A stretch of 64,000 nucleotides of DNA. Source: Blastocatellales bacterium. Its GTDB lineage: Bacteria; Acidobacteriota; Blastocatellia; RBC074. The stretch spans positions 22,704-86,703 of the forward strand of contig JBFWUF010000008.1 in the NCBI GenBank assembly GCA_050247435.1, given 5' to 3'. The position numbers and the translations under genes were made by a program. Shown piece after piece: positions 21,052 through 58,028 of this stretch. Positions within the stretch are counted from its first letter, which is position 1. Every line of letters begins with the position of its first letter. Under the pieces are notes generated by a model, which was not told the DNA's origin, made no database searches, and worked only from the letters and a program-made list of their open reading frames with translations.

Positions 21052-22450
21052 TCAGCCTCCTTCCGACGCTGCGCTCCAACGCGATTAGCGCGCGCTTGGT
21101 GGCGACCTGGAAATCGGCCTCGCGCAGGCGTTCATCGGAGTAGCGGCGCGCGGTTTCGAGCACGAAAAGATAAGCCACGTCGCCTGAGCGGTAAGAGGTT
21201 TGAGCCAGGCGAATGTCCTGTTCCAGCGGTGGCAGCACACGCGCGCGCCACAGATCGTGCGCCGCACGCGCCTGTCTGAGTTGTGCGTATGCCTCTCTCA
21301 CTTCCGAAACGATTCGTTGCCGGGCGGCAATCAATTGTTTGGCGGCGCGCTCGATCTCAGCCTCGGCGCGCGAAATATTGCCTTGATTCCGGTTGAAGAT
21401 CGGCAGATCAATCAGCAGGCCAGGCCCCTGCTCGAAGCCATTCGTCCCGCGTCCGTACTCTTTGGCGATGGCTGTGACGTTGACGATGCGCGAGCGTTCC
21501 CACTTAGCGCGCGCGCCGGCGGCTTCAATAGCCAACTCTCCAGCTATGACCTCCGGTCTGGCGTCGAGCGCCTGTTTGATCAATTCGTTGAGCGATTCTG
21601 ATTCGGAGACAGTGGGGAGCGGCGGTACTGCAGACGCCTGTACGCTGATGATCCGATCAGGCGCGGGCGTCAGCGATGTTTGCGGGACGATCAGATTCAG
21701 GTCTGGGGATTCAACGCCGAACCCTAACAACGAGCGCAATCGCTCTTTGGCCAGTTCGGCGTCTTGCGTGAAGCGGGCCTCGCGCTCTTCCGCCAGGCGC
21801 GCGTCGGTGATGGCGGCGCTCGTTTCCAATTCGCTGATGTCGCCCGCGCGCAGCCGGGCGTTGATGATAACGGCGATTTCCCGGCGCTCGTGCGTGATCT
21901 CCTCGGCGATGCCTGCGCGCGTATGGGCCGCCGCGTACTCGGCGTAAGCCAGCCGCACGTCGCGCGCCAGGTCGAGCGCGCGCGACACCAGGGTTTCGGC
22001 GACGCGTTCCTGCTCCAGTTTGGCCGCCGCCACGCGTCGGGGCCGTTGCCAGATCGCTTCGATCGGCCAGTTGGCGACTGCTTCCAGGATGCGGAAGCTG
22101 AAGGGAAAGATCATTGTCAATTGCGGGTTGGAAAGCAGCCCGGCTTGGATCACGTCGGCGCGCGCCACACCCAGCGCCGTCATCTCGGCTTGCAGCGCCG
22201 GACTGTTCCACAACGCAATCGCCACAGCCTCGTCTTCCGTCACGCCGTCGCCAAGAGAAATGCCTTCGGGCAGCGCCGGAACCTCTGACTTCGTCGCCGG
22301 GTGAAGTTTATGCCCGATTCGGCTTTCAACCTCTTTCGACACGTCGGCGGGCTGTCGTCCGGCCTGTGCCAGTACGCACGCTGGGAGCAGCATCATGGAA
22401 AAGACAATCACCAGGGGCTTCATCGTTCGTCTCCAACCTGCGCGGTTCAA
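21038..22450 (-). CDS. czcC: TolC-family outer membrane efflux protein (CzcC-like)
   Basis: 470 aa with a signal peptide and two repeats of alpha-helical coiled-coil plus beta segments. Overlaps the czcB start. Confidence 0.85.
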   Translation of the reverse strand: MNRAGWRRTMKPLVIVFSMMLLPACVLAQAGRQPADVSKEVESRIGHKLHPATKSEVPALPEGISLGDGVTEDEAVAIALWNSPALQAEMTALGVARADVIQAGLLSNPQLTMIFPFSFRILEAVANWPIEAIWQRPRRVAAAKLEQERVAETLVSRALDLARDVRLAYAEYAAAHTRAGIAEEITHERREIAVIINARLRAGDISELETSAAITDARLAEEREARFTQDAELAKERLRSLLGFGVESPDLNLIVPQTSLTPAPDRIISVQASAVPPLPTVSESESLNELIKQALDARPEVIAGELAIEAAGARAKWERSRIVNVTAIAKEYGRGTNGFEQGPGLLIDLPIFNRNQGNISRAEAEIERAAKQLIAARQRIVSEVREAYAQLRQARAAHDLWRARVLPPLEQDIRLAQTSYRSGDVAYLFVLETARRYSDERLREADFQVATKRALIALERSVGRRLIANH

Positions 22451-22962
22451 TTGGGCAGCGGCTTGCCGTCAGGATCAACTTTGATTTCCGAAATCTTGCC
22501 TGCTGTCCGGACATGCGCTTCGTAAGCGACGATCGCATTGTTCTTCGTAATGGATTCGATCAGCAGTATCCTGCCCTTGCCAGCCTGCTTGACGATCTCG
22601 GCCTTGGCGGCGGGCGGAAGCGAAGCCAGCGTGACTTGTTCTTCCACTTCAACGACAGCGCCGTTGGCATCCATCAGAACGTCTTTGAGATGGCCTTTGA
22701 CGCGCAGCGACGCTTCGTAAAACGTCTGGCCGTCCTTCGTTTCCATCGAAAGACCGCGCAGCGTCGCCCCTTTGCTCTGTTCCCGCACCGTGGCCTGCGC
22801 CGCCGGCGGGAGGTCTTTCATCTTCACAGGACGCTCAGTTTCCTGAGCCAGAGAATGCTGCGCGCAAAGGGCGAGCAACAGAACCGCAACGCAGGCCGTC
22901 AAGCGCCGGCGCGCAAGAAGCACGGTTATTTTTGTGATGCGTTTCATCATGCCATTCCTCAC
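22447..22962 (-). CDS. periplasmic tandem PepSY-like domain protein
   Basis: Signal peptide. Two internal repeats (LPPAAQATVREQSKGATLRGL and LPPAAKAEIVKQAGKGRILLIE) typical of PepSY_like/BLIP-like domains. Confidence 0.6.
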   Translation of the reverse strand: MRNGMMKRITKITVLLARRRLTACVAVLLLALCAQHSLAQETERPVKMKDLPPAAQATVREQSKGATLRGLSMETKDGQTFYEASLRVKGHLKDVLMDANGAVVEVEEQVTLASLPPAAKAEIVKQAGKGRILLIESITKNNAIVAYEAHVRTAGKISEIKVDPDGKPLPN

Positions 22963-22986
22963 TGGTTGAAATTAGGACTGGATCGT

Positions 22987-23598
22987 TCACTGGCGAGCCG
23001 GTGCGAGCTTGCCCTGCTGTGCCTGGGCGCGAGCTTGAAGGCCGCGGTAATAATCGTAGACGTAATCCTTGTAAGAGCCGTGCCCCCAACTGGTGTAGAA
23101 GTCGTACTGCTTCATCTCCTTGTATGCTTGATCAATGTTCCACCCATCTACCGACATTCGATAAACGGCTGTCATCGCGCCAGTGCGGTGCCGCCCGCCC
23201 GCGCAGTGGACGTAGACCGGCCAGTTAGCCTGGTTGTTGACCGTTTCCAGGAAGCGCGTTGCGGTGTCGGCTTGAGGATAGCTTTTCTCCTTCATTGGCA
23301 GGTTGATGTAACGCAGCCCCGCGCGCTCTGCGTTTGCCCGCGCCTCGGAATCAGCGTCTTCGCGCAAGTCAACAATCGTTTTGACGCCGAGCGCGGCCAG
23401 TTGCTCATAGTTGCGCCCCTTAGGCTGCGCGCCGCGATAGAAATGGTCATTGACCTTTCCGAAGTTTTCAATGTCCACTGCAGAACCACTTGCCCGCTTA
23501 TGATCCGAAAGGGCGCTAGTTGTTAGCGCCGTTGCGCAGATCAGTGCGGCCACCAGAGCCGCGCTCCACGTCCTGTGAAAAAGGATTCTATGTTTCAT
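22987..23598 (-). CDS. secreted Cys-based phosphatase (CX5R; tyrosine/dual-specificity phosphatase-like, Y_phosphatase2/3-like)
   Basis: Signal peptide. Catalytic loop HCAGGRHRTG. An upstream D (general acid) region. ATG at 23598 with a GGGAG RBS; the ORF-track start 23628 is further upstream. Confidence 0.75.
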   Translation of the reverse strand: MKHRILFHRTWSAALVAALICATALTTSALSDHKRASGSAVDIENFGKVNDHFYRGAQPKGRNYEQLAALGVKTIVDLREDADSEARANAERAGLRYINLPMKEKSYPQADTATRFLETVNNQANWPVYVHCAGGRHRTGAMTAVYRMSVDGWNIDQAYKEMKQYDFYTSWGHGSYKDYVYDYYRGLQARAQAQQGKLAPARQ

Positions 23599-23741
23599 TG
23601 ATGCTCCCGTTGAGAATTTCGCCAACATGGTCGCCGTTGGCCAGGAAACTTATTCCGTCTTTTGCTTTTCCGCGCATCAGACCGGCCATGAACAGGCCAG
23701 CCGAATGAATGCGCCAATCAATCGCATTGTAACGAAGAGGA

Positions 23742-23759
23742 GATAAACAGAGGATAAAC
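23742..23759. promoter_or_regulatory. candidate OmpR-family response-regulator box GATAAAC-N4-GATAAAC (copy 2 of 5)
   Basis: GATAAAC at 23742-23748 and at 23753-23759, phased 11 bp. Lies upstream of the phosphatase/PepSY/czcCBA operon. 31 bp nearly identical to the box at 43301-43318. Confidence 0.45.
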
Positions 23760-23795: not shown

Positions 23796-25226
23796 TTATC
23801 CAAATTGCTTCGCGGGTAAAGTGACGCGAAATTGGCTGCCTGTAGAGTCAGAATGTTGCAAAGTCAATGACCCGCCGTGCGCTTCGGCAATCCAGCGGGC
23901 GATGGAAAGCCCTAATCCCGCGCCGCCGCCATTTCCGTGCGCCGCGCGAGAGCGGGCCTTATCGGCCCGATAGAAACGCTTGAAGATGTGCGGCTGCGCT
24001 TCGACGGGGATGCCGGCTCCGGTGTCATCCACGACAACGGAATAGATCGAATCCTCACGTATCAATCTGAGGGCGACTTGCCCGCCGGCGGGCGTGTGCT
24101 TAACAGCGTTATCGAGAAGGTTGAGCAGCATCTGGCGCAGCAAGGGTTCGTCGCCGCGGTAGGGTGATTCCACTGCCTCTTCAAATTGGACCGCGACCTG
24201 TTTGCGCGCAGCCAGAACGGCTGCAGCGCGCGCAGTCTCGGCGAGCAATTCCTCCAGGTAAAAATCGCTCGGCTCCAGCTCGCGCTGTTCGGCGTCGGCG
24301 CGGGCTAGTGTGAAAAGGTCTTCGACGATTTTGTTCAGACGGCGCGTCTGTTCGTTGATGATCCTCAGCGTCTCGTGGTACTCGCTCGCTTCACGCCGCG
24401 GAGGCTCAAGCATCACTTCCGTCGCGGTGTGAATCACGTGCAATGGCGTCCGCAACTCGTGCGAGGCGTCGGCCACAAACTGGCGCTGCTGCGCGAACGA
24501 TTCCTGCAAGCGGGCCAACAATTCATTGAACGTCGCGGCCAATTGCCCCAGTTCATCGCGCGGATTGGCGATCGGCAGCCGTTCCCCCAATCTTTCCGCG
24601 CTAATGCGCCGCGCGCTTTGCGACATCTCCGAAACCGGAGTCAGACTTTTGCGGACCAAAAACCATCCGCCGAACCCGGCCAGGATCAATGCAATAGGCG
24701 CTGCCGCCAGAAAGATGCCGCGCAATCCGGCCAGGTCTTCCGACATCGCCCTGAGCCGCTGGCTGACGACAATCACGTAGCTTTTGTTTTCGCGCACAAA
24801 TGTCACCCGCCGCGCAGCGACGCGCAGGTTTTCTTCCACACCGTTGACTTTGCCTGGAATGTTCAAAAATTGAATTTCGTCGCCCGTGGGCAGAGATCGC
24901 CCGGCAGGCAAGTCGGCGCGAAGATTATCCGGCGACGCTTTTTCTTCCAGCAACCGGCCCTGCGCGTCGAAGATCGCCGCCGCTTGCTCGGGAAAGTAAT
25001 GCTCATTGAGCGCGCTGTGGACGGCCTGCGCTTCGCTCTCGCCTTCCGCAAGTTCGTAGACCAGCAACCGCGAAATGCCTTCGACGGTCGTTCGCACTCC
25101 GGCGTCCAAGCGCCGGTGAAGCTGGCTGGCCGCCAGCAGATACACGCCCACGCTGAACGCGATCAACACGAATGCCAGCGTCCCCGTATGCCACAGCGTC
25201 AATCTTGTCCGTACTGAATCAAACAT
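23796..25226 (-). CDS. heavy-metal sensor histidine kinase (CusS/CzcS-like)
   Basis: TM1, ~140-aa periplasmic domain, TM2, HAMP, HisKA (SHELRTPL) and HATPase_c (DTGAGIP, GGAGLGLSI). Confidence 0.9.
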   Translation of the reverse strand: MFDSVRTRLTLWHTGTLAFVLIAFSVGVYLLAASQLHRRLDAGVRTTVEGISRLLVYELAEGESEAQAVHSALNEHYFPEQAAAIFDAQGRLLEEKASPDNLRADLPAGRSLPTGDEIQFLNIPGKVNGVEENLRVAARRVTFVRENKSYVIVVSQRLRAMSEDLAGLRGIFLAAAPIALILAGFGGWFLVRKSLTPVSEMSQSARRISAERLGERLPIANPRDELGQLAATFNELLARLQESFAQQRQFVADASHELRTPLHVIHTATEVMLEPPRREASEYHETLRIINEQTRRLNKIVEDLFTLARADAEQRELEPSDFYLEELLAETARAAAVLAARKQVAVQFEEAVESPYRGDEPLLRQMLLNLLDNAVKHTPAGGQVALRLIREDSIYSVVVDDTGAGIPVEAQPHIFKRFYRADKARSRAAHGNGGGAGLGLSIARWIAEAHGGSLTLQHSDSTGSQFRVTLPAKQFG

Positions 25227-25230: not shown

Positions 25231-25926
25231 TCATAACGGCAAATGATCGTTTCCCGCCGCCAGCAAATAGCCCTCGCCGCGCAGCGTGCGAATCAACTTC
25301 GGTTCCCGCCCTTCGTCAATCTTGCGCCGCAGCCGTTGAATGTAGACTTCAATCAGGTTTGAAAACGGGTCGAAGCTTTCGTCCCAGACGTGTTCGGCGA
25401 TCTCCGCGCGGGAAACGAGATGACCAGCTCGGCGCGCCAGGAACTCCAGCAGCGCATATTCTTTGGCAGTCAGCGCAATCAATTGTCCGGCGCGCTCGAC
25501 GGCATGCGAGCGAGTGTCGATCTTCAGGTCGCCAGCTTCGATCGTTTCCGGTTGTATGGATTGGCTTCGCCGCAAGAGCGCGCGCACGCGCGCCAGCAAT
25601 TCGTGAAAATCGAAGGGCTTGACCAGGTAATCGTCCGCGCCTGAATCCAGCCCGGCGATGCGGTCGCGCACGGCATCCCGCGCCGTCAGCATCAACACGG
25701 GCACACTCGCTCCAGCGGCGCGCAGTTCGCGGCAGACCTCAAGACCATCTTTCAAAGGCAGCATCACATCGAGGATGATCAGGTCGTAGTTGTTGATACT
25801 CGCCAAGTAGACGGCTTCCTCGCCTTCGGCGGCAACATCGACCGCGAACGCCCGCTCCCGCAACCCTTTCGCCAGCAAGCGCGCCGCATCAGGTTCATCT
25901 TCGACCAGCAAAACACGCATCTTCAC
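25231..25926 (-). CDS. OmpR-family response regulator (CusR/CzcR-like)
   Basis: REC domain (LLVEDEP, D in ILDVMLP, KPFD) plus a winged-helix DNA-binding domain ([22 protein letters not shown]). Confidence 0.9.
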
Positions 25927-26000
25927 TCCAACGTATCTGAAACCCGGACAGCCTTATGGAATCAGAGACAATCAACCGTCAAGCATCATATTACATCCCG

Positions 26001-26018
26001 GATAAACGTAAGATAAAC
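26001..26018. promoter_or_regulatory. candidate response-regulator box upstream of the RR/HK operon (autoregulation; copy 1 of 5)
   Basis: GATAAACGTAAGATAAAC. Two GATAAAC half-sites phased 11 bp, about 75 bp upstream of the RR start at 25926. Confidence 0.45.
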
Positions 26019-26251: not shown

Positions 26252-27115
26252 TCAAAATGGGTACGCCACAATTTCAACCGTCTCCGTCGTCCAATGCGAT
26301 GCTCGCGTTCGACCGGCGTGACGATCCTGGCGACGTTTGATCCATTGCATCCCCTGTTGCAAGGCGGCGAAGAACCCGTCGCGATTGCTCGCAAAACTGT
26401 GGTTGTTCGCGTGAATCAATAAGAAACGTTTCGGACGTTTCGTCGTCACGAACAAGGCTTCCGCCTCGTCGTTTGGGATAAATTGGTCACTGCTCGATTG
26501 AATGACGAAGACCGGCAGCGGCGCGATCTTCGGCAGGTAATCGTCGCTTTGAAAGGTCGGTTCATTGGGCAGTTTTCCGGTCAGGCAGGTGAAGTTGTCC
26601 ACCCAGCGCCAACCGAGAATGTTCGTTTTGCCCAGCGAAACGGCGATCAGGCCGTCGTAGCCCGCCTTGTTCGCATCCGCCGCCGCCAGCGCCGCCAGTC
26701 CCGCGCCAGTTGACCATCCGGCCAGCGTGATCTTCTCGTCGAAACCGCCTGTAACGATACCGGCAAGCTGGTGGAAATCGGTCATCACATCAGCCGCCGT
26801 CAGATGCGTTTTGCCGGTGAAGCTCGACAGGTAATGTCTGGTATCGAGCGCGTACAGGTCGTAGCCCATCCCGGCCAGCTTTTCGGCGATCGTAATGGCA
26901 AAGCCCCGATGCCCGCCGTCGCCCGGCGCGAAGAGTACTTTGTGATGCGCGCCCACGCCTGCGCCAGGATAGAAATAAAGCTTCTGCCGCTGACCGCGAA
27001 TCGCGATTGTATTTCGACCGGCTTTGATCTCCGGCGTCGCAGTTTGCGCGAAGGCTGGCGGCAGACACAGCGTTGTAAGCAGCAAAATCAGCGCAGGCGA
27101 AAATAATCTTTTCAT
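26252..27115 (-). CDS. AcvB/VirJ-family alpha/beta hydrolase (putative lysyl-phosphatidylglycerol hydrolase)
   Basis: Signal peptide. Paralogous to 28354-29133: both share VLFAPGDGG(W/H)RG and GWSEGAG/GWSTGAG (the nucleophile elbow GxSxG). ATG at 27115 overlaps the stop of the upstream small ORF (ATGA). Confidence 0.7.
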   Translation of the reverse strand: MKRLFSPALILLLTTLCLPPAFAQTATPEIKAGRNTIAIRGQRQKLYFYPGAGVGAHHKVLFAPGDGGHRGFAITIAEKLAGMGYDLYALDTRHYLSSFTGKTHLTAADVMTDFHQLAGIVTGGFDEKITLAGWSTGAGLAALAAADANKAGYDGLIAVSLGKTNILGWRWVDNFTCLTGKLPNEPTFQSDDYLPKIAPLPVFVIQSSSDQFIPNDEAEALFVTTKRPKRFLLIHANNHSFASNRDGFFAALQQGMQWIKRRQDRHAGRTRASHWTTETVEIVAYPF

Positions 27116-27315
27116 ATTGGTTTCCGGCGACAGAGCCATAACAGAGCGGCTCCGAGCGCGATTGCGATGGATGACGCTCCCACAACCGAACCGATAAAAT
27201 TCTCTGCGAAGAACACGCGTTCGATCAGCGAAAAGAACAACACGGCCGCGCCCAGCATCAGGCAAAAGACGCCCAGCGTCAGGACAATGAATCTGGAGTT
27301 TTCATTCAACCGCAT
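27112..27315 (-). CDS. small two-TM membrane protein (67 aa)
   Basis: ATG at 27315 with a GGGGAG RBS. Two hydrophobic helices. Its stop overlaps the start of the downstream VirJ-like gene. Confidence 0.4.
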   Translation of the reverse strand: MRLNENSRFIVLTLGVFCLMLGAAVLFFSLIERVFFAENFIGSVVGASSIAIALGAALLWLCRRKPI

Positions 27316-27349
27316 GCTCGTCTCCCCTTCAGCCGCATTTGCTCCGCGC

Positions 27350-43207: not shown

Positions 43208-43300
43208 TTCTCCTCCATGAATTCTGGTTGACTTAGGTTCGCGCCAGGGGCAATGCGGCGCGAGAGATCACTGACTGAGACGAGAGAGTACCAAGGAGTA

Positions 43301-43318
43301 GATAAACAGAGGATAAAC
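43301..43318. promoter_or_regulatory. candidate response-regulator box (copy 3 of 5) upstream of the metallophosphoesterase gene
   Basis: GATAAACAGAGGATAAAC, with the flanks GGAG...AGGAGTTG shared with the box at 23742. About 94 bp upstream of the ATG at 43207. Confidence 0.45.
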
Positions 43319-46618: not shown

Positions 46619-46623
46619 AGATC

Positions 46624-47928: not shown

Positions 47929-47933
47929 TGAAC

Positions 47934-48416
47934 CTACTCCACTTTGAAATCGGCGAGCGGCAGACGCTCATCAAGCCTGGTGTTTTTGATGTGGAACTCG
48001 ATGTCGTAATCGCCGCGTTGGGGGATCATCAAGTCGGCGACGTAAATGCCTGTCACCTTGCCCACGCGCGCTTTTGTCTGCACGGCTTGCGCGCCGCCTT
48101 TGGCGCGAACCGTGAGCGTCACCTCGGCCTGCTCAACCGGCGACCCGTCGCGGAGGTCGGTCAAGTGGATGCGGAACTGGCTCGGCTTGGCCGCTTTCAA
48201 CGGCTCATACTCAAAGAAGTTCTCGACCCGCTCGGTGAACTCCGTGCGCGCGACGGCCTCCTCAGCTTCTTCTTTCGGGCTTCTGGTTCCAGCCGTTTGC
48301 CACGCGCCGCATGCTGCCAGACTGATTGAGACTGCCAGCAGCAGGAGCGCCCCCGCCCTCTGACGACCGGCGGTAGTTTTTGCAAGGGAAATGAAAGACG
48401 AACGGGATGGCATCAA
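47934..48416 (-). CDS. lipoprotein, possible Ig-like periplasmic metal-binding accessory protein
   Basis: Lipobox LAAC. Mature domain ~120 aa, predicted beta-rich. Lies between the M56 protease gene and czcB. Family not recognised. Confidence 0.5.
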   Translation of the reverse strand: MMPSRSSFISLAKTTAGRQRAGALLLLAVSISLAACGAWQTAGTRSPKEEAEEAVARTEFTERVENFFEYEPLKAAKPSQFRIHLTDLRDGSPVEQAEVTLTVRAKGGAQAVQTKARVGKVTGIYVADLMIPQRGDYDIEFHIKNTRLDERLPLADFKVE

Positions 48417-48430
48417 TTGGAATCACCTTT

Positions 48431-49501: not shown

Positions 49502-49947
49502 TTGCCCTGTTTCCTCCGGCCTTGTGCCTCGCGTTTGGCGCGTATCATCTCTTCGAGTTGGTCGAGTTTGCCAGCATCCGTGCCCACGAGGTCAACGAAA
49601 GCCGAAATCGCCGGCGCATGAAACTGGCCAATCAACGCGCCCAGCACCTCCTCGACCATCACGCGTTCGAACTCCTCGTGGGAGTAACGCGGCGAATAAA
49701 CGAAGGCCTTGCCCTGCTTCTCGCGCAGCAGAAAGCCCTTGCGGTGCAGGCGATCGAGCGTTGTCAGCACCGTCGTATGAGCGATCTCGCGGCGCTTTCT
49801 CAGCTTTTCTTCGACCTCGTTAACCGTCCGCGGCGATTCTCGCCAGAGCAGTTCCATTACGGCAGTCTCCAATTCACCGAGGACATGGCTCGCGCCGCGT
49901 CTGCCGGGTTTGAATCCGCGTAAAGTGATTTTCGGTCGCATAGACAT
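49498..49947 (-). CDS. BlaI/MecI/CopY-family transcriptional repressor
   Basis: Winged helix (LGELETAVMELLWRESPRTVNEVEEKL...HTTVLTTLDRLHRKGFL) and a C-terminal dimerization domain. ATG at 49947 (MSMRPK). Confidence 0.85.
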   Translation of the reverse strand: MSMRPKITLRGFKPGRRGASHVLGELETAVMELLWRESPRTVNEVEEKLRKRREIAHTTVLTTLDRLHRKGFLLREKQGKAFVYSPRYSHEEFERVMVEEVLGALIGQFHAPAISAFVDLVGTDAGKLDQLEEMIRAKREAQGRRKQGK

Positions 49948-50095
49948 ATCAGTATGCTGGCTACAACTCTTGATCTTTGTAAGACTACTGCTGATAGTTA
50001 CATGGCGGAAAGAGGGAGTCAATGGCTCATTCTCCTTGCATTCGCGGTTCGCTGAGATGGCACAGAGCAACGTGAAATGGGCTGTGCCATCTCTT

Positions 50096-53000
50096 TCAAA
50101 AGATAGCTGCTTCCACGCGCGATTCCCGCTCCGAATCCAGTGGAGACTTTCTTGTTAACTCCGCCATTGAAGGCGGCTTTCCGAACTTCAAATAAAGCGC
50201 AGGCAGCACGATCATATTGAGCAGCGTTGAAGTGAGCAGCCCGCCCAGAATCACCACGGCCATCGGCTGCTCCAACTCGCGTCCGGGTTTGCCCGCGCTC
50301 AAGGCCAGCGGCAACAAACCAAGTCCCGCCGTGAGCGCCGTCATCAGGATCGGCGAGAGCCGCTCCATCGCGCCGCGCGCCACCAGATCGCGCCCGAACT
50401 TCATGCCCTCTTCCGCCATCAGGTGGTTGTAATGCGTAACGAGCATAATCCCGTTGCGCGTGGCGATGCCGAAAAGCGTCACAAAGCCGACGAGTGAAGC
50501 GACGGATGTTTCGCCCTCACTCGCAATCAACACCGCCGCCACGCCGCCAATCAGCGCCAGCGGCAGGTTCGCCATCACAAGCAGCGATTGCCTGAGCGAG
50601 CGGAACGCGAGGAAAAGCAGCAGGAAGATGCCCACGACCGCAGCGGCGCTGAGCAGCAAGATTTGGCGAAACGCTTTCGACTGCGCTTCGTACTGTCCGC
50701 CGTAAACGACGTAGTAGCCCGCTGGCAATTGCACTTTTTCACTGACGCGACGCTGGATGTCGCCGACCACTTCGGTCAGGCTGCGCTCGCCCGTGACGTT
50801 GCACGTGACGACGATGCGGCGCTGGGCGTTCTCGCGGTTGATCGTGTTTGGGCCGTTGACGATCTCGATATCGGCGAGCGCGCCGAGCGGGACTTTCGCT
50901 CCGACAGGCGTGTCCACGAGCGTCTCGCGCATCGTTCGCAGATCGCTCGCCGCGTTCGGTTCGTAGCGGACGAGGATGGCGAACGATTTTTGCCGCTCGA
51001 ACACGTCGGAGACTTTCACGCCGTAAAAAGCCGCGCGCATCATCTCGGCCAAGCCAGCGCTGTTGAGGCCGTATTGCGCCATCGCGTCGCGCTTGAAGCT
51101 GACATGAACTTTCGGCACACCGGTCTGTTGTTCGACGCTGAGGTCGGTGATGCCCGGCGCATCGGCCATCGCGCGTTGAATCTCTACGGCTTTTTCCGCC
51201 AGCGCATCCAGGTCGGGGCCGAAGAGCTTGACGACAATCGTGGCCGTCGTGCCCGACAAAACTTCTTCGATTCGCTCGGAGATGAATTGATTGATGCCGA
51301 AAGCGAAGCCTTTGAAGTCGGCCAGCTTGCGACGCACGTCCTCGATGACTTCATCGCGCGTGCGGTCGCTCTCTTTCAAAGCGACGTGCAACTCGGTGAG
51401 ATTCGGGCCGAAGGTGTCTTCGCTAAGTTCGGCGCGCCCTGTCTGCTGCGTGACTTTGACGACTTCGGGGATTTCAGCCAATCGTTGTTGGGCGAGCGCG
51501 CCAACCCGCATGGACTCTTCCAGCGAAAGACCGGGCACGCCGCTCATGCGTATGATCAGATTGCCTTCGTTGAATTCCGGCAGGAACTCTCCGCCGAGAA
51601 ACGGTGTGGCGGCGAGTGTGAGCGCAAGCAATGCAGCCGAGACGGCGATGATCGCGCGCGGATACCTGAGCGCCGGATTGATGATTCGCGCGTAAGCTCG
51701 CTTGAGCAATCGCACCGTCAACGTCTCCTCCGACCTCACTCTTCCGTTCATCGCCAATCGCGGCAGCAGCGCGTAACAGAGCGCGGGCGTGATTGTGAGC
51801 GCGACGACGAGCGAAGCGAGGATCGAGATGATGTAAGCAAGCCCGAGCGGGGCGAAGATGCGCCCGGCCAGGCCGGAAAGTGAAAAGATCGGCAGGAAGA
51901 CCAGCGCGACAATGGCCGTCGCGTAGACCACTGAACTGCGCACTTCGCTCGACGCGTGATAGATCACCGAGAGGACTGGCTCCGGATGTTCCTTCAAGCG
52001 GTTTTCGCACAGCCGCCGCCAGACGTTTTCGACATCAATAATCGCGTCGTCCACAACTTCGCCAATCGCTATCGCCAATCCGCCGAGCGTCATCGTGTTG
52101 ATCGTCGCGCCGAACCAGCGCAGGATGATGATCGCCACCAACAACGAGAGCGGAATCGCCGTCAGGCTGATCAACCCCGCGCGCCAATTGAAGAGAAACA
52201 ACGCAAGCACGAGCACCACCAGCAACCCGCCTTGCAGGATCGCCCAGTTGATGTTGGAGATTGAACGTTCAATGAAATCGGCCTGGCGAAAAATGCCGGG
52301 GTCCAGCACGACATCGCGGGGCAGCGCGGCCCTCAACTCGCCGAGCGCCGCTTCGACCGCGCGCGTCGTCTGAAGCGTATTGGCCCAGGGCTGTTTGAGT
52401 ACGATCACAATCACACTCGGTTGGCCTGCCGTCGAGGAGTCGCCAACTTTGTATTCGGCGCCGAACTGTACGCGCGCGACCTGCCCGATCTTCACCGGCA
52501 GATTGTTTTTGACCGCGACGACGGCATTCTCCAGATCGCTCAAGGCGCGCACGCGGCCTTCGCCCTGAATGACCATCGTCTGCCCGGCGGTGTCGAGGAA
52601 GCCTGCCGCCGCATTTTGATTCGCCGACCGCGCGGCGTTCATCACCTCGCCCAGCGTCACACCAAAATCCTTCAACTTCGCCGGGTCAACGATGACCTGA
52701 TACTGCCTGACCTCGCCGCCGAAGACGATGATCTGCGAGACGCCCGGCACGGCCAGCAAGCGCGGGCGGATCGTCCAATCGGCGAGCGTGCGCAAATCCA
52801 TCAACGAAGTTTCTTTGGCCGTCAGGCTGACGCGCAGCAGCGTGCCGACTGGCGGGCTGATGGGCGTCATCTGCGGCTCGTTCGCGCCTTCGGGCAAACG
52901 CGCGCGCGCGATCTGCAACTTCTCGCCGACCAGTTGCCGCGCGCGAAAGATGTCCGTGCCTTCCTCAAAAGTGCAGGTGACGACCGCGAGGCCGGCGGCT

Positions 53001-53257
53001 GAAGACGAACGAATCACTTCCAGATTGCTCGTGCCGTTGAGCGCCGTCTCAAGCGGCAGCGCGATGAGTTGCTCGGTCTCTTCGGCGGAGAAGCCGGGCG
53101 CTTCGGCCTGAATCACGACTTGCGGCGGCGCAAAATCCGGGAAGACATCGAGCGGCGCATTCATTGCCGTCCGCATGCCGAAGACTATCAATAGCGCGGC
53201 GAGCACGATGACGACCAGCCGGTTGCGCAACGACCAGAGGATGATCCGGTTGAGCAT
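50096..53257 (-). CDS. czcA: CusA/CzcA-family heavy-metal efflux RND permease (paralog 3)
   Basis: 1053 aa. N-terminus MNAPLDVFPDFAPPQVVIQAEAPG. Confidence 0.95.
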   Translation of the reverse strand: MLNRIILWSLRNRLVVIVLAALLIVFGMRTAMNAPLDVFPDFAPPQVVIQAEAPGFSAEETEQLIALPLETALNGTSNLEVIRSSSAAGLAVVTCTFEEGTDIFRARQLVGEKLQIARARLPEGANEPQMTPISPPVGTLLRVSLTAKETSLMDLRTLADWTIRPRLLAVPGVSQIIVFGGEVRQYQVIVDPAKLKDFGVTLGEVMNAARSANQNAAAGFLDTAGQTMVIQGEGRVRALSDLENAVVAVKNNLPVKIGQVARVQFGAEYKVGDSSTAGQPSVIVIVLKQPWANTLQTTRAVEAALGELRAALPRDVVLDPGIFRQADFIERSISNINWAILQGGLLVVLVLALFLFNWRAGLISLTAIPLSLLVAIIILRWFGATINTMTLGGLAIAIGEVVDDAIIDVENVWRRLCENRLKEHPEPVLSVIYHASSEVRSSVVYATAIVALVFLPIFSLSGLAGRIFAPLGLAYIISILASLVVALTITPALCYALLPRLAMNGRVRSEETLTVRLLKRAYARIINPALRYPRAIIAVSAALLALTLAATPFLGGEFLPEFNEGNLIIRMSGVPGLSLEESMRVGALAQQRLAEIPEVVKVTQQTGRAELSEDTFGPNLTELHVALKESDRTRDEVIEDVRRKLADFKGFAFGINQFISERIEEVLSGTTATIVVKLFGPDLDALAEKAVEIQRAMADAPGITDLSVEQQTGVPKVHVSFKRDAMAQYGLNSAGLAEMMRAAFYGVKVSDVFERQKSFAILVRYEPNAASDLRTMRETLVDTPVGAKVPLGALADIEIVNGPNTINRENAQRRIVVTCNVTGERSLTEVVGDIQRRVSEKVQLPAGYYVVYGGQYEAQSKAFRQILLLSAAAVVGIFLLLFLAFRSLRQSLLVMANLPLALIGGVAAVLIASEGETSVASLVGFVTLFGIATRNGIMLVTHYNHLMAEEGMKFGRDLVARGAMERLSPILMTALTAGLGLLPLALSAGKPGRELEQPMAVVILGGLLTSTLLNMIVLPALYLKFGKPPSMAELTRKSPLDSERESRVEAAIF

Positions 53258-54564
53258 CAGCGTTTCTCCTCTTTCTCGTCATCTTCGCTTTCAATCTGGC
53301 CTTTCAACGTCTCGCTGCGCAACGAAGCCGCGCCGACCGACACCACTTTCTCACCTGCTTTGAGTCCGCTGCTGATGACGACACTGTCGCCGTTGCGCTC
53401 GCCCAGGGTGACGCGGCTACGCTGGTAAACGCCCGGCTGCACCTCGACGAAGACAATGGACTGGCTCTCTTCGGTAAGCGCGGCGGAAGCCGGGATGAGC
53501 AGCGCTTGTATGCGTGCGCCGCCCGGAATGCGCGCTTCGGCTGTCATCCCGATTTTGAGCGCGCCGTTAGGATTGCCGGCTGCGAAGATCACCGTCGCGT
53601 TGCGATTGGCCGGGTCAATCACGCCGTTGATAGTGACGAGTTGGCCGGTGTATGCGCGGTCGGGATCGGCGGGCGTCGTAAATGTCACGCGCGCGGCGCG
53701 GCGCACCGCCCGAAGCTGGCTTTCGTGAACGGCGACCTCAATCCAGACGCGGCTCAAATCAACAATCGTCAACAGACTTTTCGCCGGGTCAATTTGCTGT
53801 CCGGCGGTAAGTTCGGCGGCGACGACCATGCCGGAAATCGGCGCTCGCAGTGGGACGCGCGGCGGCGTGCTGGTTTGTTGTTGCTGGGCTGCTTCGGATT
53901 GCGCTCTGGCCGCTTCGTACTGTTCTTTGGCGCGCCTGGCTCCATCGAGGCTGGCCTGCGACTGCCGCAACTTGAACTCGGCGGTCTGAAGTTGTTTGAG
54001 CGAAATCGCGCCGCCGTCGTAGAGCCGCTTGGCGCGCTCCACTTCAATCTGTTGAAACGCGACCTCGTGCCGTGCCTGCTCAATCGTGGCCTGAAGCTGC
54101 GCCGCCGTTGCGCTCAATTGCGCCGCCGTCCCGCCGAACTGCGCCGCCGCCGCCCTCAATTGCGCCTGCTCGGCGGCGGTGAGCATCTGTTCGACTTCGG
54201 CGATGACCGCGCCCTGTTTGACGAAGCTGCCGATGCGCGGCAAGCGAGCCGGATCGGCGACCAAGCGCCCGGCGAAGGGCGAAAAGACTTGCGCTTCGCC
54301 GCCCGCGCGCGCCGTCACCCGCCCAATGGCCGTGATGGTCGAAACAATTTCCTGCTCGGTCGCAGCGGCGGTTTGAATGCCATTGGCTTTGATCTGCTCC
54401 GGCGTCAAACGAATCGCGCCATCCGGCGCATCGTCTGTCTTTGTCTCAGCCTCGCGCGCCGGTTCGGGTTTGCGGTCTGTTTTTGAACCGCAGCCCGCGC
54501 ATAACAAGCTCGAGCCGCAAAGCAGCGCGCTCAACAACACAATGATGAAATTGCAATTTGGCAT
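53257..54564 (-). CDS. czcB: RND efflux periplasmic adaptor (CzcB-like, paralog 3)
   Basis: 435 aa. Lipoprotein-like N-terminus (LLCAGCGSK). Coiled-coil plus beta-barrel domains. Confidence 0.85.
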   Translation of the reverse strand: MPNCNFIIVLLSALLCGSSLLCAGCGSKTDRKPEPAREAETKTDDAPDGAIRLTPEQIKANGIQTAAATEQEIVSTITAIGRVTARAGGEAQVFSPFAGRLVADPARLPRIGSFVKQGAVIAEVEQMLTAAEQAQLRAAAAQFGGTAAQLSATAAQLQATIEQARHEVAFQQIEVERAKRLYDGGAISLKQLQTAEFKLRQSQASLDGARRAKEQYEAARAQSEAAQQQQTSTPPRVPLRAPISGMVVAAELTAGQQIDPAKSLLTIVDLSRVWIEVAVHESQLRAVRRAARVTFTTPADPDRAYTGQLVTINGVIDPANRNATVIFAAGNPNGALKIGMTAEARIPGGARIQALLIPASAALTEESQSIVFVEVQPGVYQRSRVTLGERNGDSVVISSGLKAGEKVVSVGAASLRSETLKGQIESEDDEKEEKR

Positions 54565-54621
54565 ATTTCCCGGCGTGGCCCCGCAGGATCGCTCCTTGAG
54601 CGTGCAATCTAACGAGAGTTG

Positions 54622-54639
54622 AATAAACAGCGGATTAAT
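54622..54639. promoter_or_regulatory. degenerate response-regulator box (copy 4 of 5) upstream of czcB paralog 3
   Basis: AATAAACAGCGGATTAAT. 14 of 18 positions match GATAAACAGAGGATAAAC, with the same 11-bp phasing. About 58 bp upstream of the czcB start at 54564. Confidence 0.35.
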
Positions 54640-54663: not shown

Positions 54664-56109
54664 TCAGCTTGCGATGGGAGCAGGCAGCGTAGCGACAAAC
54701 GTACTGCCGCATTGGTCGGAGTGGCGCAGCTCAAGGCATCCGTGATGCGCCTCCGCAATCCAGCGCGCGATGGAAAGGCCGAGTCCCGCGCCTCCGTTCG
54801 CGCAGGTTTCGGTTCGCGTGCGTGATTTATCCGCGCGGTAGAAACGCTCAAAAATGCGCGACTGGGCTTCCGGCGGAATGCCCGCGCCGGTGTCGGTTAC
54901 GGTGATTTCGTGCGTGGAATCGTGTTGCGCCAGACTGACCCGGACCGCCCCGCCTGCCGGCGTGTATTTGACGGCATTATCGAGCAGGTTTAAGAGCATT
55001 TGCCGCAGCAAGCCTTCGTCGCCGCGATACGGCGTTTCGCCTGCCGGCGCGACCTCGACTTTCACGCCTTTTCGTTCTCCCAGTATTTGCGCGGCCCGCG
55101 CGGTCTCCGCCACCAATTCATCGAGGTAAAGGTTTCTGCTTTGCGGCTTGCGTTGTCCGGCGTCGGCGCGCGCGAGCGTGAACATGTCCTCGACGATGCG
55201 CGTCAGATGCCGCGTCTGTTGATTGATCATCGCCAGCGCCTCACGGTATTCGCCCGCTTCGCACTGCTCCTGATCCATCGTCACTTCGCCTGCCGTCCGC
55301 ATCACATAAAGCGGCGTGCGCAACTCGTGCGAAGCATCGGCCATAAATTGTCGCTGTTGTTCAAAGGCGCGCTGTTGTTGTGCAAAAGTGTCGTTGAGGC
55401 GCGCGAGCAGTTCGTTGAAAGTCGTGGCGAGTTGACCGAGTTCATCGCGCGGGTTGATGACCGGCAAACGCTGGTCGAGGTTTTCGGCGCTGATCCGCCG
55501 GGCGCGTTCCGACATCGCTACCACCGGCGCCAGGCTCTTGCGCGCCAGAAACCAACCGATTGCCGCGACTCCTAGCAGGGCAAAAGGAACGGCCAGGACG
55601 AGGATGCCGCCGAGCAATTCGAGGTCGTCCGACACATCTTCATACGGCTGGCTGATGACCAGGAAGATGGCGCTCTGCGGTCCGGTTTTGATGCGCTCCA
55701 CCGCCACCCGCAAACCATCATCAACACCGGTTTGCGCTTCCGGCAGCGAGTAATATTGCCGCCCCTCCCGGTCGAGCGCCGGGATGCCGGCGGGCAGCGT
55801 GGCGTGAACCTCGCCGAGCGTCTTTTCTTTCAGCAAGCCGCCGTTGTGATCGAAGAAGGCCACCGCCTGGCGCGGGAAATAGGATTTGCGCAGCGCGCTC
55901 CCCGCCGCATACTCATCCGTCTCGCCCTCCTCTTTTTCATGCAAGATGAGCCGCACAACGCCTTCGCTGGCGACGCGCAATCCTGCATCCAACCGGCTTT
56001 GCAGCTTGCGCGCCATCAGCGCGTAGACGCCCATGCTGAAAACGATCAGGACCAGCGCCAGCAAACCGACGTACCACAACGTCAATTTTGTGCGGACGGA
56101 GTCAATCAT
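54664..56109 (-). CDS. heavy-metal sensor histidine kinase (paralog 2)
   Basis: Same architecture as 23796-25226. N-terminus MIDSVRTKLTLW (copy 1 has MFDSVRTRLTLW). ATG at 56109 overlaps the RR stop (ATGATTGA). Confidence 0.9.
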   Translation of the reverse strand: MIDSVRTKLTLWYVGLLALVLIVFSMGVYALMARKLQSRLDAGLRVASEGVVRLILHEKEEGETDEYAAGSALRKSYFPRQAVAFFDHNGGLLKEKTLGEVHATLPAGIPALDREGRQYYSLPEAQTGVDDGLRVAVERIKTGPQSAIFLVISQPYEDVSDDLELLGGILVLAVPFALLGVAAIGWFLARKSLAPVVAMSERARRISAENLDQRLPVINPRDELGQLATTFNELLARLNDTFAQQQRAFEQQRQFMADASHELRTPLYVMRTAGEVTMDQEQCEAGEYREALAMINQQTRHLTRIVEDMFTLARADAGQRKPQSRNLYLDELVAETARAAQILGERKGVKVEVAPAGETPYRGDEGLLRQMLLNLLDNAVKYTPAGGAVRVSLAQHDSTHEITVTDTGAGIPPEAQSRIFERFYRADKSRTRTETCANGGAGLGLSIARWIAEAHHGCLELRHSDQCGSTFVATLPAPIAS

Positions 56110-56791
56110 TGGTCTCCTCGCCTTCGGCGGCCAGCACATAGCCCGCGCCACGCCGCGTGCGAATCAGTTTCAGCGCGTAACCTTCATCGAGTTTGCGCCG
56201 CAACCGTTGGACGTAGACTTCGATTGAATTGGTGAATGGATCGAACGATTCATTCCAGACGTGCTCGGCGATGTCGGCGCGGCTCACCACTTCACCGGCG
56301 CGCCGGGCCAGATACTCCAGCAACGCGTACTCTTTGGCCGTCAATTCGATCTGTCGATCTCCACGCCTCACCTGCTGCGCGCGCGTGTCGATCACCAGAT
56401 CGGCGACGGTCATCGTCTCAGGCCGCAGCGCCTGCCCGCGCCGCAGCAACGCCCGCACGCGCGCCAGCAGTTCATGAAAGTCGAACGGTTTAACCAGGTA
56501 ATCATCCGCGCCGAGGTCGAGTCCGGCGATGCGATCCTGCACCGCGTCGCGCGCCGTCAGCATGAGAATCGGCGTGGTTGCTCCTGCCGCTCGCAATTCG
56601 CGGCAGACCTCAAAACCATCCTTCAGCGGCAGCAGCACATCGAGAATGACGAGGTCATAGTCGTTGACGCTCGCTAGATAAAGAGCCTCCTCGCCGTCGG
56701 CGGCGACATCCACGGCGTAAGTCCGTTGCCGTAGCCCTTTCGCCAGCATCCGCGCCGCGTTGGGTTCGTCCTCAACCAGTAAAATGCGCAT
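56102..56791 (-). CDS. OmpR-family response regulator (paralog 2)
   Basis: About 80% identical to the RR at 25231-25926 by eye, including an identical recognition-helix region (IEVY.QRLRRK). Confidence 0.9.
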   Translation of the reverse strand: MRILLVEDEPNAARMLAKGLRQRTYAVDVAADGEEALYLASVNDYDLVILDVLLPLKDGFEVCRELRAAGATTPILMLTARDAVQDRIAGLDLGADDYLVKPFDFHELLARVRALLRRGQALRPETMTVADLVIDTRAQQVRRGDRQIELTAKEYALLEYLARRAGEVVSRADIAEHVWNESFDPFTNSIEVYVQRLRRKLDEGYALKLIRTRRGAGYVLAAEGEETND

Positions 56792-56864
56792 CTTGATTCT
56801 CCGGAATCGGCAATATCCCCATCAACCGTTCGGCGCACAGCCTTAGCCGATTCCATCAATCGCG

Positions 56865-58028
56865 CTAAATGCCGTTGATCATATCGCCGGTCACCGCATT
56901 GTAGAGGAGCGTCACACCGTCAGCCAGAACGACTTCGTACACGGTTTCCGTATGACCTTTTATTTGCTTTAGCTCCATTTCCATTACGGTTTGGCTGCGA
57001 CTCGTCTCAGCCTTGCGGATGATCTCCTGGAAGGTCAGCAGCCTGCTTTTCTCCAGCCCGAGCGGAGAGAGGACTGCGAGTTTGTTCGGAGCCTTTGGCT
57101 TCGTTCCCAGGAGCTTGCCTGAGGTAGCCTCAATTTCATACTCGTTGCCCGAAGAGAAGGTCACATCCCAGGTCGTGACCGAACGGGCCGGATCCCATTC
57201 GAGATCAACTTTGAGCACCTCGCCGCTACCGCCTTCGGCCTGTGCGCGCCTGATCGCTTCCACCACGGTGATATATCCCGCCTCGGCTGAAAGCCCTGCG
57301 GTTGTGCGAGCCTGCGGTGTCGAGGCTTTGGCAATCGGCGCTTCCTTCACCTCGTCGTCGTCTTTCTTGGCCTTCGCCAGCTTATCCTCTTTCTTCTTTT
57401 TCTCCTTCGATGAGGACTTGCCCCGATCTTTGTCGTCCGAGGCCGAACGCGCGCTCGAATCTCCTCGATCCGCTCGCGAGCCATAGACGTAAGCGTAAAG
57501 CTCCGGGTGTTCTTCCGGCGTGCCGAAGCCATAGGATTGCTGCTCAGCCCAGGCGCGATCTTTTGCCCAGCCCTGAACGCGCATCCGGTAAAGCGCGGCA
57601 ATGCTGCCGGCGCGATGCTTGCCAGCCGAGCAATGCACGTAGACTGGCTCTTTAGCGTTTTGGATGATCGAGAGAATTGCGCTGACGGCCTTGTCATCGG
57701 GAGTGTCGTGGCCGGTCATCGGGAAATTGAAATACTTGATCCCGTTGCGCTGGCTGACTGCGGGTTCATCGGCGTTCGGGTTATCCCTCAGATCAATGAT
57801 CGTGCGTACGCCCATTGCCGCAAGGCTTTCAATGCCGGTTGGTGTTATGGCCCCGCCGCGAAAGTAGCGCTCCGTCACCCGCCCGAAATTCTTCACGCCT
57901 TCGACCTGCTCGCGCCCGCTCTGCGCGAATGTTGCTGGTGAGGAGAGGACGACGAATGTCAGGAGTGAAAGAATGATCTGCGGCAGCCGCTGGCCGGCGG
58001 TTTTACTCCGGTTGATTAACGCGCTCAT
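56865..58028 (-). CDS. secreted Cys-based phosphatase (CX5R) fused to two C-terminal PepSY-type domains
   Basis: Signal peptide. Catalytic loop [10 protein letters not shown], paralogous to 22987-23598. Lys-rich linker. Two PepSY-like repeats at the C-terminus. Confidence 0.75.

Follow-up and report, generated by a model that had tools for sequence, protein, structure and literature searches.

The 64-kb window analyzed here (64,000 nucleotides of contig JBFWUF010000008.1 from a Blastocatellales bacterium, a soil acidobacterium) contains two loci in which an OmpR-family response regulator (RR) and a sensor histidine kinase (HK) lie beside Czc-like efflux genes, a putatively secreted Cys-phosphatase from the superfamily of protein tyrosine phosphatases (PTPs) and a PepSY-type domain. 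We refer to them as copy 1, with the gene order RR-HK-PTP-P171-czcCBA, and copy 2, with the order PTP::PepSY-RR-HK-czcBA, where a double colon marks domains joined in one protein. Both loci are on the minus strand, and every open reading frame (ORF) named in an earlier reading of the sequence alone (the sequence-only reading) was found there, including the czcBA genes beside copy 2 (Table 1). Families were called with Pfam and NCBIfam at curated cut-offs, pairwise identities were computed, and AlphaFold2 (AF2) models were compared by Foldseek; signal peptides were called by eye only. Copy 1 is tightly packed, with gaps of 24 bp between PTP1 and P171 and of 6 bp between MFP1 and RND1, and with overlaps of P171 with the start of OEP and of OEP with MFP1. 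The PTP1 ORF can be extended to 23628 (213 aa); its homologues begin at its Met11 (23598), which gives a protein of about 203 aa. An NCBI entry 100% identical to the 387-aa ORF of copy 2 carries the sole annotation 'tyrosine-protein phosphatase [Blastocatellales bacterium]'.

Table 1. Boxes and genes of the two loci, with related genes; positions are those of the window, or of the fetched locus (L number) where one is given. MFP, membrane fusion protein; OEP, outer-membrane efflux protein; RND, resistance-nodulation-division pump; MPE, metallophosphoesterase.
Feature	Position	Strand	Description and basis
Box upstream of RR1	26000-26017	-	TTTATCTTACGTTTATCC, 9 nt, then TATGAT; exact pattern match
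Box upstream of PTP1	23741-23758	-	TTTATCCTCTGTTTATCT, 9 nt, then TACAAT
Box upstream of PTP2::PepSY	58103-58120	-	TTAATCTTCTTTTTATCT, 9 nt, then TATGAT
Box upstream of MFP2-RND2	54621-54638	-	TTAATCCGCTGTTTATTC, 9 nt, then TAGATT
Fifth box, upstream of MPE::PepSY	43300-43317	-	identical to the PTP1 box
RR1	25231-25926	-	OmpR-family response regulator; Pfam Response_reg + Trans_reg_C
HK1	23796-25226	-	HAMP-HisKA-HATPase sensor kinase, CusS/CzcS-like; Pfam
PTP1	22987-23598	-	stand-alone Cys-phosphatase, putative signal peptide, P-loop HCAGGRHRTG; Pfam
P171	22447-22962	-	171-aa tandem PepSY-like (DUF2874/BLIP-like) protein, putatively secreted; homologues + AF2 model
OEP	21038-22450	-	czcC-like; Pfam
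MFP1	19828-21051	-	Pfam
RND1	16744-19821	-	Pfam; OEP-MFP-RND form a CzcCBA-like efflux system
PTP2::PepSY	56865-58028	-	387 aa: signal peptide, Cys-phosphatase, Lys/Asp-rich linker, tandem PepSY
RR2	56102-56791	-	Pfam
HK2	54664-56151	-	likely ATG start 56109; Pfam
MFP2	53257-54564	-	Pfam
RND2	50096-53257	-	CusA/CzcA-family pump; Pfam + TIGR00914
MPE::PepSY	41975-43207	-	410-aa metallophosphoesterase + C-terminal PepSY, putatively secreted; Metallophos 64.9, PepSY 43 bits
DUF3616-like gene	L102 2486-3487
DUF3616-like gene	L105 9541-10482
DUF3616-like gene	L107 7715-8698
DUF3616-like gene	L172 5887-6945

These genes share a promoter-like element. By eye, we derived the 18-bp pattern TTWATCY-N4-TTTATYY, a direct repeat with 11-bp spacing, from the four intergenic regions upstream of PTP1, RR1, PTP2 and MFP2. 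The window contains exactly five matches to it, all on the minus strand; shuffling gave an expectation of 0.00 matches without mismatch and 0.03 with one. The fifth box played no part in defining the pattern and was found by it: it lies 93 bp upstream of MPE::PepSY, and about 45 bp around it are homologous to the PTP1 promoter. At all five sites a TAnnnT hexamer follows the box after exactly 9 nt. The boxes head the units RR1-HK1, PTP1-P171-czcCBA1, MPE::PepSY, PTP2::PepSY-RR2-HK2 and czcBA2, so that a secreted phosphatase carrying or preceding a PepSY-type domain is the first gene in three of the five. Activator sites of the OmpR/PhoB type that stand in for a -35 element typically have this layout, a repeat followed by a spaced hexamer. 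Canonical sigma-70 promoters (-35/-10) were not found in the box-bearing intergenic regions, which is compatible with activator-dependent promoters without being evidence for them. Judged from the sequence, the box is most likely a response-regulator binding site that would take the place of the -35 element.

The box is also present in related loci. With one mismatch allowed, 33 matches were found in 3.69 M strand-bases of 170 fetched loci, and 30 of them are on the gene strand: 13 stand before a PTP gene, 8 before RR, 2 before P171 and 7 after HK. The box-bearing PTP genes of these 13 other loci span several PTP clades. Equivalent boxes stand before RR genes in L002, L074, L085, L097, L098, L104 and L110, and equivalents of the PTP2::PepSY box occur in L081, L082, L085 and L094. 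Six of the seven post-HK boxes lie within about 90 bp of the HK stop codon, and one precedes an OEP gene. In loci devoid of phosphatases, the post-HK box precedes a TonB-dependent-receptor-like protein of about 1115 aa (L111 1838-5413, L115 8176-11661) or a radical-SAM enzyme (L106 7975-8770, L121 8511-9992).

The CX5R proteins had been taken for phosphatases from their motif, and family models agree. PTP1 and PTP2 both exceed the Pfam gathering thresholds of PTP-NADK, Y_phosphatase2, Tc-R-P, PTP-SAK and Y_phosphatase3; PTP1 scores 81.4 bits with PTP-NADK and 74.7 with Y_phosphatase2 (cut-off 27), and PTP2 scores 65.5 and 50.7 bits, respectively. By sequence, the nearest solved structures to PTP1 are TpbA (E 8e-13) and yeast Siw14 (E 3e-11). 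The catalytic Cys is conserved in orthologues; the sequence-only reading had named its lack of conservation as a refuting observation, and that refutation fails. The HCX5R loop is present in 120/120 PTP1 homologues among the matches listed and in 112/120 matches listed in the search with PTP2::PepSY, and alignment A1 shows no variation at the P-loop residues H, C, G, H, R and G. Both proteins thus belong by sequence to the Cys-based PTP superfamily and are predicted to be catalytic. Their catalytic domains are 36% identical to each other.

A third secreted phosphatase gene, MPE::PepSY, was not listed in the sequence-only reading; a signal peptide and GDxG/GNHD motifs can be read in it. MPE orthologues that have no PepSY tail lie between HK and PTP or P171 in L001, L002, L074, L098 and L173. 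The tailed form is not a common architecture: among the best 150 matches, the PepSY tail was covered by one other 50% cluster only. A further join was found in two 296-aa proteins on metagenome contigs of about 1.5 kb (P0166 and P0189), in which a signal peptide is followed by an LMWPc-like domain (VCEHGAAKS; 24.2 bits, barely above the cut-off of 23.2) and a P171-type domain 81-85% identical to P171. Three phosphatase folds, DSP (dual-specificity phosphatase), Metallophos and LMWPc(-like), are therefore found joined to PepSY-type domains. The PTP::PepSY architecture is well kept: among the 120 clusters listed (at 90% identity), some 90 have both Pfam matches, and they extend to identities as low as about 42%.

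The C-terminus of PTP2 was said to carry two PepSY-type repeats, and it does so by both profile and model. Residues 253-309 match PepSY (PF03413) with 32.3 bits in the whole protein and 36.2 bits in the C-terminal fragment (cut-off 24). Modeled with AF2, residues 239-387 form two alpha/beta repeats (pLDDT 93.8), and the top Foldseek match of this model is the tandem-PepSY lipoprotein 4exr (E 5e-7, TM 0.69). By sequence and model, this region is a tandem PepSY. P171 itself gave no Pfam match, even at E 10, and reached 21 bits with NCBIfam PepSY_MTB (cut-off 60). Its 41 homologues, which are 50-93% identical to it (all but one at least 61%), connect it with the PepSY families: 17/41 match PepSY_like (PF11396; best E 1e-11), and PepSY and PepSY_2 are each matched by 14/41. 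The AF2 model of P171 (pLDDT 88 overall, above 95 in the mature part) matches the Bacteroides tandem DUF2874/BLIP-like periplasmic proteins 3u1w, 4hbr, 4k61 and 4fr9 (E about 2e-5, probability 1.0) and, more weakly, 4exr (E 0.019). The description of P171 as tandem PepSY-like therefore holds through its homologues and predicted fold.

P171 and the PTP2 C-terminus are not similar at the family level. BLASTP gave no similarity (E 79), hhalign of the two family profiles returned a probability of 3.4%, and the two are connected only through cross-matches at fold level. On sequence and modeled structure, they are different PepSY-type families of a common fold class. The sequence-only reading had proposed a Rosetta-stone fusion, in which two separate genes of copy 1 became one gene in copy 2; with family-level homology rejected, the relation is not a Rosetta stone in the strict sense.

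The same reading regarded the two loci as one duplicated module, and this was borne out in part. Identity is 77% between RR1 and RR2, close to the 80% estimated before, and 57% between HK1 and HK2. The best NCBIfam match of the regulators is TIGR01387 (cztR_silR_copR), narrowly missed by RR1 (266.4 bits) and RR2 (273.5 bits; cut-off 279.2). Similarly, TIGR01386 (cztS_silS_copS) is the best match of HK1 (279.3 bits) and HK2 (266.5 bits), and its cut-off of 292.55 is narrowly missed. In the heavy-metal-efflux (HME) RND model TIGR00914 (CusA/CzcA; cut-off 701.45), RND2 (791.9 bits) and a third pump of the window, RND3 at 43493-46618 (881.9 bits), pass; for RND1 it is the best match at 602.1 bits, under the cut-off. 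From these sequence comparisons, RR1-HK1 and RR2-HK2 are anciently paralogous CusRS/CzcRS-like two-component systems (TCS). The TCS and the pumps look paralogous; the phosphatases, the PepSY parts and the gene order do not. A neighbor-joining (NJ) tree built on 112 PTP domains assigns PTP1 and PTP2 to different deep clades, PTP2 being placed in a separate 'fusion' clade. The PTP1 clade comprises 11 stand-alone PTPs, all TCS- or pump-linked (window, L001-L005, L027, L074, L091, L098, L125), and sits within a much broader family, the many stand-alone paralogues that lack this linkage. A third clade, also deep (HCKDGVDRTG; L102, L105, L107), is likewise TCS-linked, which brings the TCS-linked PTP clades to three. 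The tree, the 36% identity of the PTPs and the differing gene order rule out duplication of the whole module. In the simplest reading of these sequences, related TCS-pump units have on more than one occasion taken up phosphatases from different clades, which weakens the case for duplication and strengthens that for selection on the association.

Adjacency of phosphatase, PepSY-type domain and TCS, the feature on which the earlier proposal of a conserved unit depended, recurs outside this genome in other Blastocatellia loci. In a PTP1-centered survey of 80 genome loci, 9 have a TCS or pump near the PTP1 relative, the closest orthologues included. The complete order RR-HK-MPE-PTP-P171-OEP-MFP-RND is found in L002 and L098, and L001 and L074 are alike as far as their contigs reach. 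Other orders are RR-HK-PTP-OMF-MFP-RND (OMF, outer-membrane factor; L091), RR-HK-MPE-P171(-czcCBA) (L097, L171, L173), PTP::PepSY-RR-HK-OMF-MFP(-RND) (L081, L082, L094), RR-HK-PTP::PepSY (L085, L089) and RR-HK-DUF3616-PTP (L102, L105, L107). A TCS is adjacent in 5 of 10 PTP::PepSY contexts (window, L081/82, L085, L089, L094). Elsewhere, the fusion lies in a metal-transporter island with P-type ATPase, CDF, ZIP and PCYCGC genes and no TCS (L083), beside TonB-dependent receptors (L086-L088) or after a MerR gene (L090). Two 171-172-aa neighbors of the fusion in L083 were considered as P171 candidates and rejected, having neither a Pfam match nor a match to the P171 profile.

A survey centered on HK, in metagenome loci related to the sensor domain of HK1, showed the accessory genes as a mosaic: PTP only (L091), MPE, PTP and P171 (L098), MPE and P171 (L097), P171 only (L104), an upstream PTP::PepSY (L094), MPE then PTP (L125), a DUF3616-like gene then a divergent PTP (L102, L105, L107), or no such gene (L095/96, L115-L117, L121). 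In a survey of P171 (11 loci), P171 follows RR-HK in 10/10 loci with upstream sequence, and it stands directly after a phosphatase gene (MPE and/or PTP) in 9/11. In other genomes, the partner most regularly upstream of it is MPE, not PTP. We conclude that a secreted phosphatase and a PepSY-type domain are genuinely and recurrently associated with each other, and both with this TCS family; that the association is facultative; and that the linkage has so far been observed only in Blastocatellia. The claim of a functional unit fares accordingly: the promoter box links the phosphatase genes with the TCS and the pumps, but the linkage is facultative.

Several observations from these surveys concern other genes. 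One gene that recurs directly after HK, upstream of a divergent PTP or of P171, encodes a secreted DUF3616-like protein (about 310-350 aa); in L085 and L086, too, DUF3616 genes lie close to the fusion. In L172, the protein of 352 aa encoded upstream of P171 was considered as an MPE and rejected for lack of similarity; it resembles the DUF3616-like proteins of L102, L105 and L107. Stand-alone PTP paralogues without TCS linkage (L006-L080) often form tandem pairs near a HEAT-repeat gene (24 loci), the polyphosphate kinase gene PPK1 (16) or a DUF4956/MgtC-like membrane protein (14), as in L059 3765-5969, L055 7308-8213 and L016 8868-9731. This hints at a connection of the wider PTP family with polyphosphate, with common synteny among relatives as an alternative.

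The surroundings of the two loci contain further transport and envelope genes. Between MPE::PepSY and copy 2, a tight one-strand array (43493-50070, minus strand) is headed by a BlaI-like repressor (49498-50070), continues with a BlaR1/M56-M48-like sensor peptidase (48431-49501) and a YtkA-like gene (47934-48416), and ends with an MFP (46624-47928) and RND3; a BlaI/BlaR-type pair apparently leading a heavy-metal RND operon is unusual. Directly upstream of PTP2::PepSY lies a divergent DDE transposase gene (58194-59453, plus strand), and DDE_3 transposase genes are on the matching side of the orthologous module in L081 (6775-7347) and L082 (1130-1675), which suggests that the copy-2 module is located in a mobile or rearranging context. 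The fourth RND pump of the window, encoded along with an MFP at 59563-63998 (minus strand), is matched best by a multidrug RND model, not by CusA/CzcA, and has no box ahead of it in the window. Directly upstream of RR1 (26252-29133, minus strand) are genes for an alpha/beta hydrolase, a PF03706 protein (lysyl-phosphatidylglycerol-synthase transmembrane region) and a VirJ-like hydrolase, which may be membrane-lipid charge-modification genes adjoining the regulon. Immediately beside the copy-1 pump, on the opposite strand (14477-16663, plus), are genes for a metal-uptake transporter of the NRAMP type and for an outer-membrane channel of the MetA-pathway type.

The common box and the recurrent gene association suggest that envelope phosphate chemistry is part of a metal-stress response. 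Reasoning from gene content and by analogy, we tentatively favor, with slightly more doubt than belief, a scheme in which phosphate is released or removed in the periplasm under response-regulator control alongside efflux, with PepSY serving as a partner-binding module. Regulator binding, periplasmic location, substrate, sensed metal and PepSY partner are the elements that we infer in it. The kinases would sense a stress, probably divalent metals, and the regulators would bind the box and co-induce phosphatases, PepSY-type proteins and pumps. The HME-RND pumps would then export the cations while phosphoester or phosphoanhydride hydrolases are placed in the periplasm. In one version, the orthophosphate released would sequester the exported metal, as has been proposed for PbrB with PbrA in lead resistance; in the other, metal-binding phosphate would be stripped from envelope molecules, as by PmrG under PmrAB. 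The PepSY domains would bind proteins, either to regulate or position the phosphatase or to feed back on the kinase sensor as DbfQ does on DbfS. Three unrelated phosphatase folds in one slot fit generic phosphate release better than action on one protein substrate, and the constancy of P171 after RR-HK fits the DbfQ precedent. Siw14-type relatives, which hydrolyze pyrophosphate and polyphosphate (PMC10653929), also count in favor of the scheme. The TCS-less homologues of the fusion suggest that the fused PepSY serves the enzyme itself.

Several points weigh against this scheme. All related loci come from Blastocatellia or Pyrinomonadaceae metagenome-assembled genomes, a single class (Blastocatellia), so that shared ancestry inflates the counts. 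No TCS or pump is near the PTP1 relative in 71 of the 80 loci, and 5 of the 10 PTP::PepSY contexts have neither an adjacent TCS nor the box. The regulon cargo varies: because the same box stands before TonB-receptor-like and radical-SAM genes elsewhere, the cargo is not exclusively efflux and phosphatase. The signal sensed may not be a metal, given that both HK/RR pairs and RND1 remain below threshold in the heavy-metal models. The composition of P171 (pI 8.2, no Cys, few His) speaks against an acidic metal binder like UipA or LanP, so that a metal-sponge role of that kind is not indicated; the PTP2 C-terminus has a pI of 5.0, and obvious ligand clusters are seen in neither. Finally, Cys-based phosphatases are typically inhibited by thiophilic metals, which is awkward for a role under Zn, Cd or Cu stress. 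This last difficulty would be explained if the phosphatase::PepSY proteins were metal co-sensors and not detoxifying enzymes, in which the low-pKa catalytic Cys of the PTPs or the dinuclear site of MPE would report the periplasmic metal load and PepSY would relay it to the sensor domain of the CusS/CzcS-like kinase. We regard this idea as quite doubtful; if true, it would provide a phosphatase-fold co-receptor for a TCS and extend the DbfQ principle.

Other explanations start from the same genes. The proteins may be signaling accessories only, with PepSY bound to the periplasmic sensor of the adjacent kinase and the phosphatase as a co-sensor or modulator; it could act on a signaling protein in the manner proposed for TpbA, or metal at the catalytic Cys could alter the contact between PepSY and kinase. 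PepSY-TCS modules occur widely, with direct binding of DbfQ to DbfS (PMC12714742), P171 is constant after RR-HK and the sole accessory in L104, TpbA is the closest solved relative of PTP1, and the regulator's box before the accessory genes is what one expects of a feedback element. On the other hand, strict conservation of the full catalytic motif points to enzymatic activity, one slot is taken by three unrelated phosphatase folds, and the fusion lacks a neighboring TCS in half of its contexts. The periplasm also has no ATP for protein phosphorylation. We consider this explanation unlikely, albeit one to be taken seriously. Phosphorus scavenging or polyphosphate metabolism, with extracytoplasmic hydrolases of organophosphate, phytate or polyphosphate answering an envelope or nutrient cue and with incidental pump adjacency, is rather more doubtful still. 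It agrees with the weak PTPlike_phytase matches of the phosphatases in Pfam, with fusion homologues beside TonB-dependent receptors and once beside PhoX, with stand-alone paralogues near PPK1 and DUF4956, and with the hydrolysis of pyrophosphate (PPi) and polyphosphate by Siw14 relatives (PMC10653929). It does not account for the PTPs of the TCS-linked clade, which precede same-strand efflux genes, directly or past P171/MPE, wherever the contig is long enough (the sole exception is L004, with PTP between RR and HK). Nor does it explain the box before the czcBA2 pump or the fusion amid the metal-transporter genes of L083, and no pho-regulon genes (PstS, PhoU) were seen among the window proteins.

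Two explanations deny, respectively, the unit and the enzyme. Adjacency could result from common descent together with island hitch-hiking among a small number of related Blastocatellia genomes, as the single class, the variable accessory content and the transposases flanking copy 2 here and in L081 and L082 would allow. We find this very improbable, given the box directly upstream of PTP genes from several clades in 13 loci, the differing gene orders, the independent fusions with three phosphatase folds, and the fifth window box, which was found independently of the pattern derivation. It is more improbable yet that the PTP fold performs another chemistry here, such as a DUF442/Blh-type persulfide-carrying Cys for metal-sulfide formation. 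Some homologues are named DUF442 or TIGR01244 by JGI, and weak TIGR01244 and BLH_phosphatase matches exist; the TIGR01244 scores of 24-28 bits are far under the cut-off of 85.85, while several phosphatase models were passed, and on this ground the DUF442 sulfur-transferase assignment was rejected. Moreover, the HCX5R loop with its G(K/R)HR stretch resembles, in our own reading, that of Siw14/PFA-DSP, and the co-resident MPE belongs to a bona fide phosphoesterase family.

Phosphate release or removal alongside efflux thus remains our preferred, tentative scheme. If it is true that this chemistry cooperates with RND efflux, a component would be added to the standard model of czc/cus resistance, and there may be a bearing on metal-phosphate biomineralization in soils. 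Of the new facts, three are the most useful: a conserved box, a third gene for a phosphatase::PepSY protein, and recurrence over multiple clades and folds. Together they describe a promoter-linked association of three phosphatase folds and PepSY-type domains with a metal-sensor-like TCS and HME-RND pumps in a host class that is abundant in soil and poorly studied. PepSY control of TCS kinases was shown only recently, and bacterial periplasmic Cys-phosphatases have no agreed substrates; the association yields testable candidates for the envelope role of such phosphatases and for the binding partners of PepSY domains. Full-text literature searches found no paper on PTP::PepSY proteins, none on secreted PTP-type phosphatases as components of czc/cus-type loci, in line with the sequence-only reading that they are not recognized there, and none combining Acidobacteria, czc, tyrosine phosphatase and metal resistance. 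A hiuABC paper containing both 'PepSY' and 'tyrosine phosphatase' (PMC12424826) was irrelevant.

A PepSY protein beside a TCS is an already described module. DbfQ binds the sensor domain of DbfS, PepSY-TCS adjacency is enriched more than 60-fold, and DbfQRS-type modules are known from V. cholerae and, as BqsRS with PA2658/PA2659, from P. aeruginosa (PMC12714742). In that work such modules have a PepSY protein at most four genes from HK/RR; P171 is two genes from HK1, and PTP2::PepSY adjoins RR2. Similar to DbfQRS, a secreted PepSY-type protein is encoded one or two genes from an OmpR-family RR and a HAMP-HisKA kinase, apparently in one regulon. Unlike DbfQRS, PepSY is tandem here rather than single and is fused to or follows secreted phosphatases, the unit includes pumps, and P171 belongs to the PepSY_like/DUF2874 family, not to PF03413.

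On the phosphatase side, TpbA (PA3885) is a periplasmic dual-specificity phosphatase of P. aeruginosa (PMC2691606, PMC4409338). It resembles PTP1 in its signal peptide, similar size and CX5R loop, but its P-loop reads HCKHGNNRTG versus HCAGGRHRTG in PTP1, and it is tied to quorum sensing and c-di-GMP, not to a TCS, pump or PepSY domain. Cys-phosphatases of the Siw14 or PFA-DSP type, which hydrolyze inositol pyrophosphates, PPi and polyphosphate (PMC10653929), share with the PTPs described here the Y_phosphatase2 family and the G-K/R-H-R stretch of the P-loop. Those enzymes are eukaryotic and cytosolic, whereas ours are bacterial and putatively secreted.

PbrB is an enzyme of the PAP2 family. 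The passages on lead resistance of Cupriavidus metallidurans in PMC3431237 (citing Hynninen 2009) describe PbrA/PbrB as an exporter with a periplasmic-face phosphatase that supplies metal-precipitating phosphate, PbrB being a membrane phosphatase of undecaprenyl pyrophosphate (C55-PP). Co-regulation, putative in our loci, of a metal exporter with an extracytoplasmic phosphatase is the only logic common to the two systems. The Pbr system has the MerR-type PbrR and a P-type ATPase versus a TCS and RND pumps here; unlike PbrB, the enzymes of our loci are DSP-type, Metallophos and LMWPc-like, are soluble and come with PepSY domains, and by family they are not of the PbrAB type. PmrAB has been described as a metal-responsive TCS. 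Under it, the periplasmic phosphatase PmrG removes the heptose-II phosphate of lipopolysaccharide (PMC8129183). A TCS controls an envelope phosphatase there, as would be so here; PmrG alters surface charge, comes from another enzyme family, has no PepSY domain and has no efflux pump in its unit.

UipA and LanP are described, in the passages of PMC8963506 and PMC9988556 that deal with them, as tandem-PepSY metal-binding proteins. They likewise place tandem PepSY in the cell envelope in a metal-related context, and 4exr is both the top HHpred match reported for LanP and the best structural match of the PTP2 C-terminus. As given there, UipA and LanP are strongly acidic (LanP pI 4.6), in contrast to P171 and, less so, to the PTP2 C-terminus. 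Precedents for the parts therefore exist separately: PepSY proteins with a TCS, a periplasmic DSP in TpbA, a phosphatase in metal resistance in PbrB, and a phosphatase under a cation-linked TCS in PmrG.

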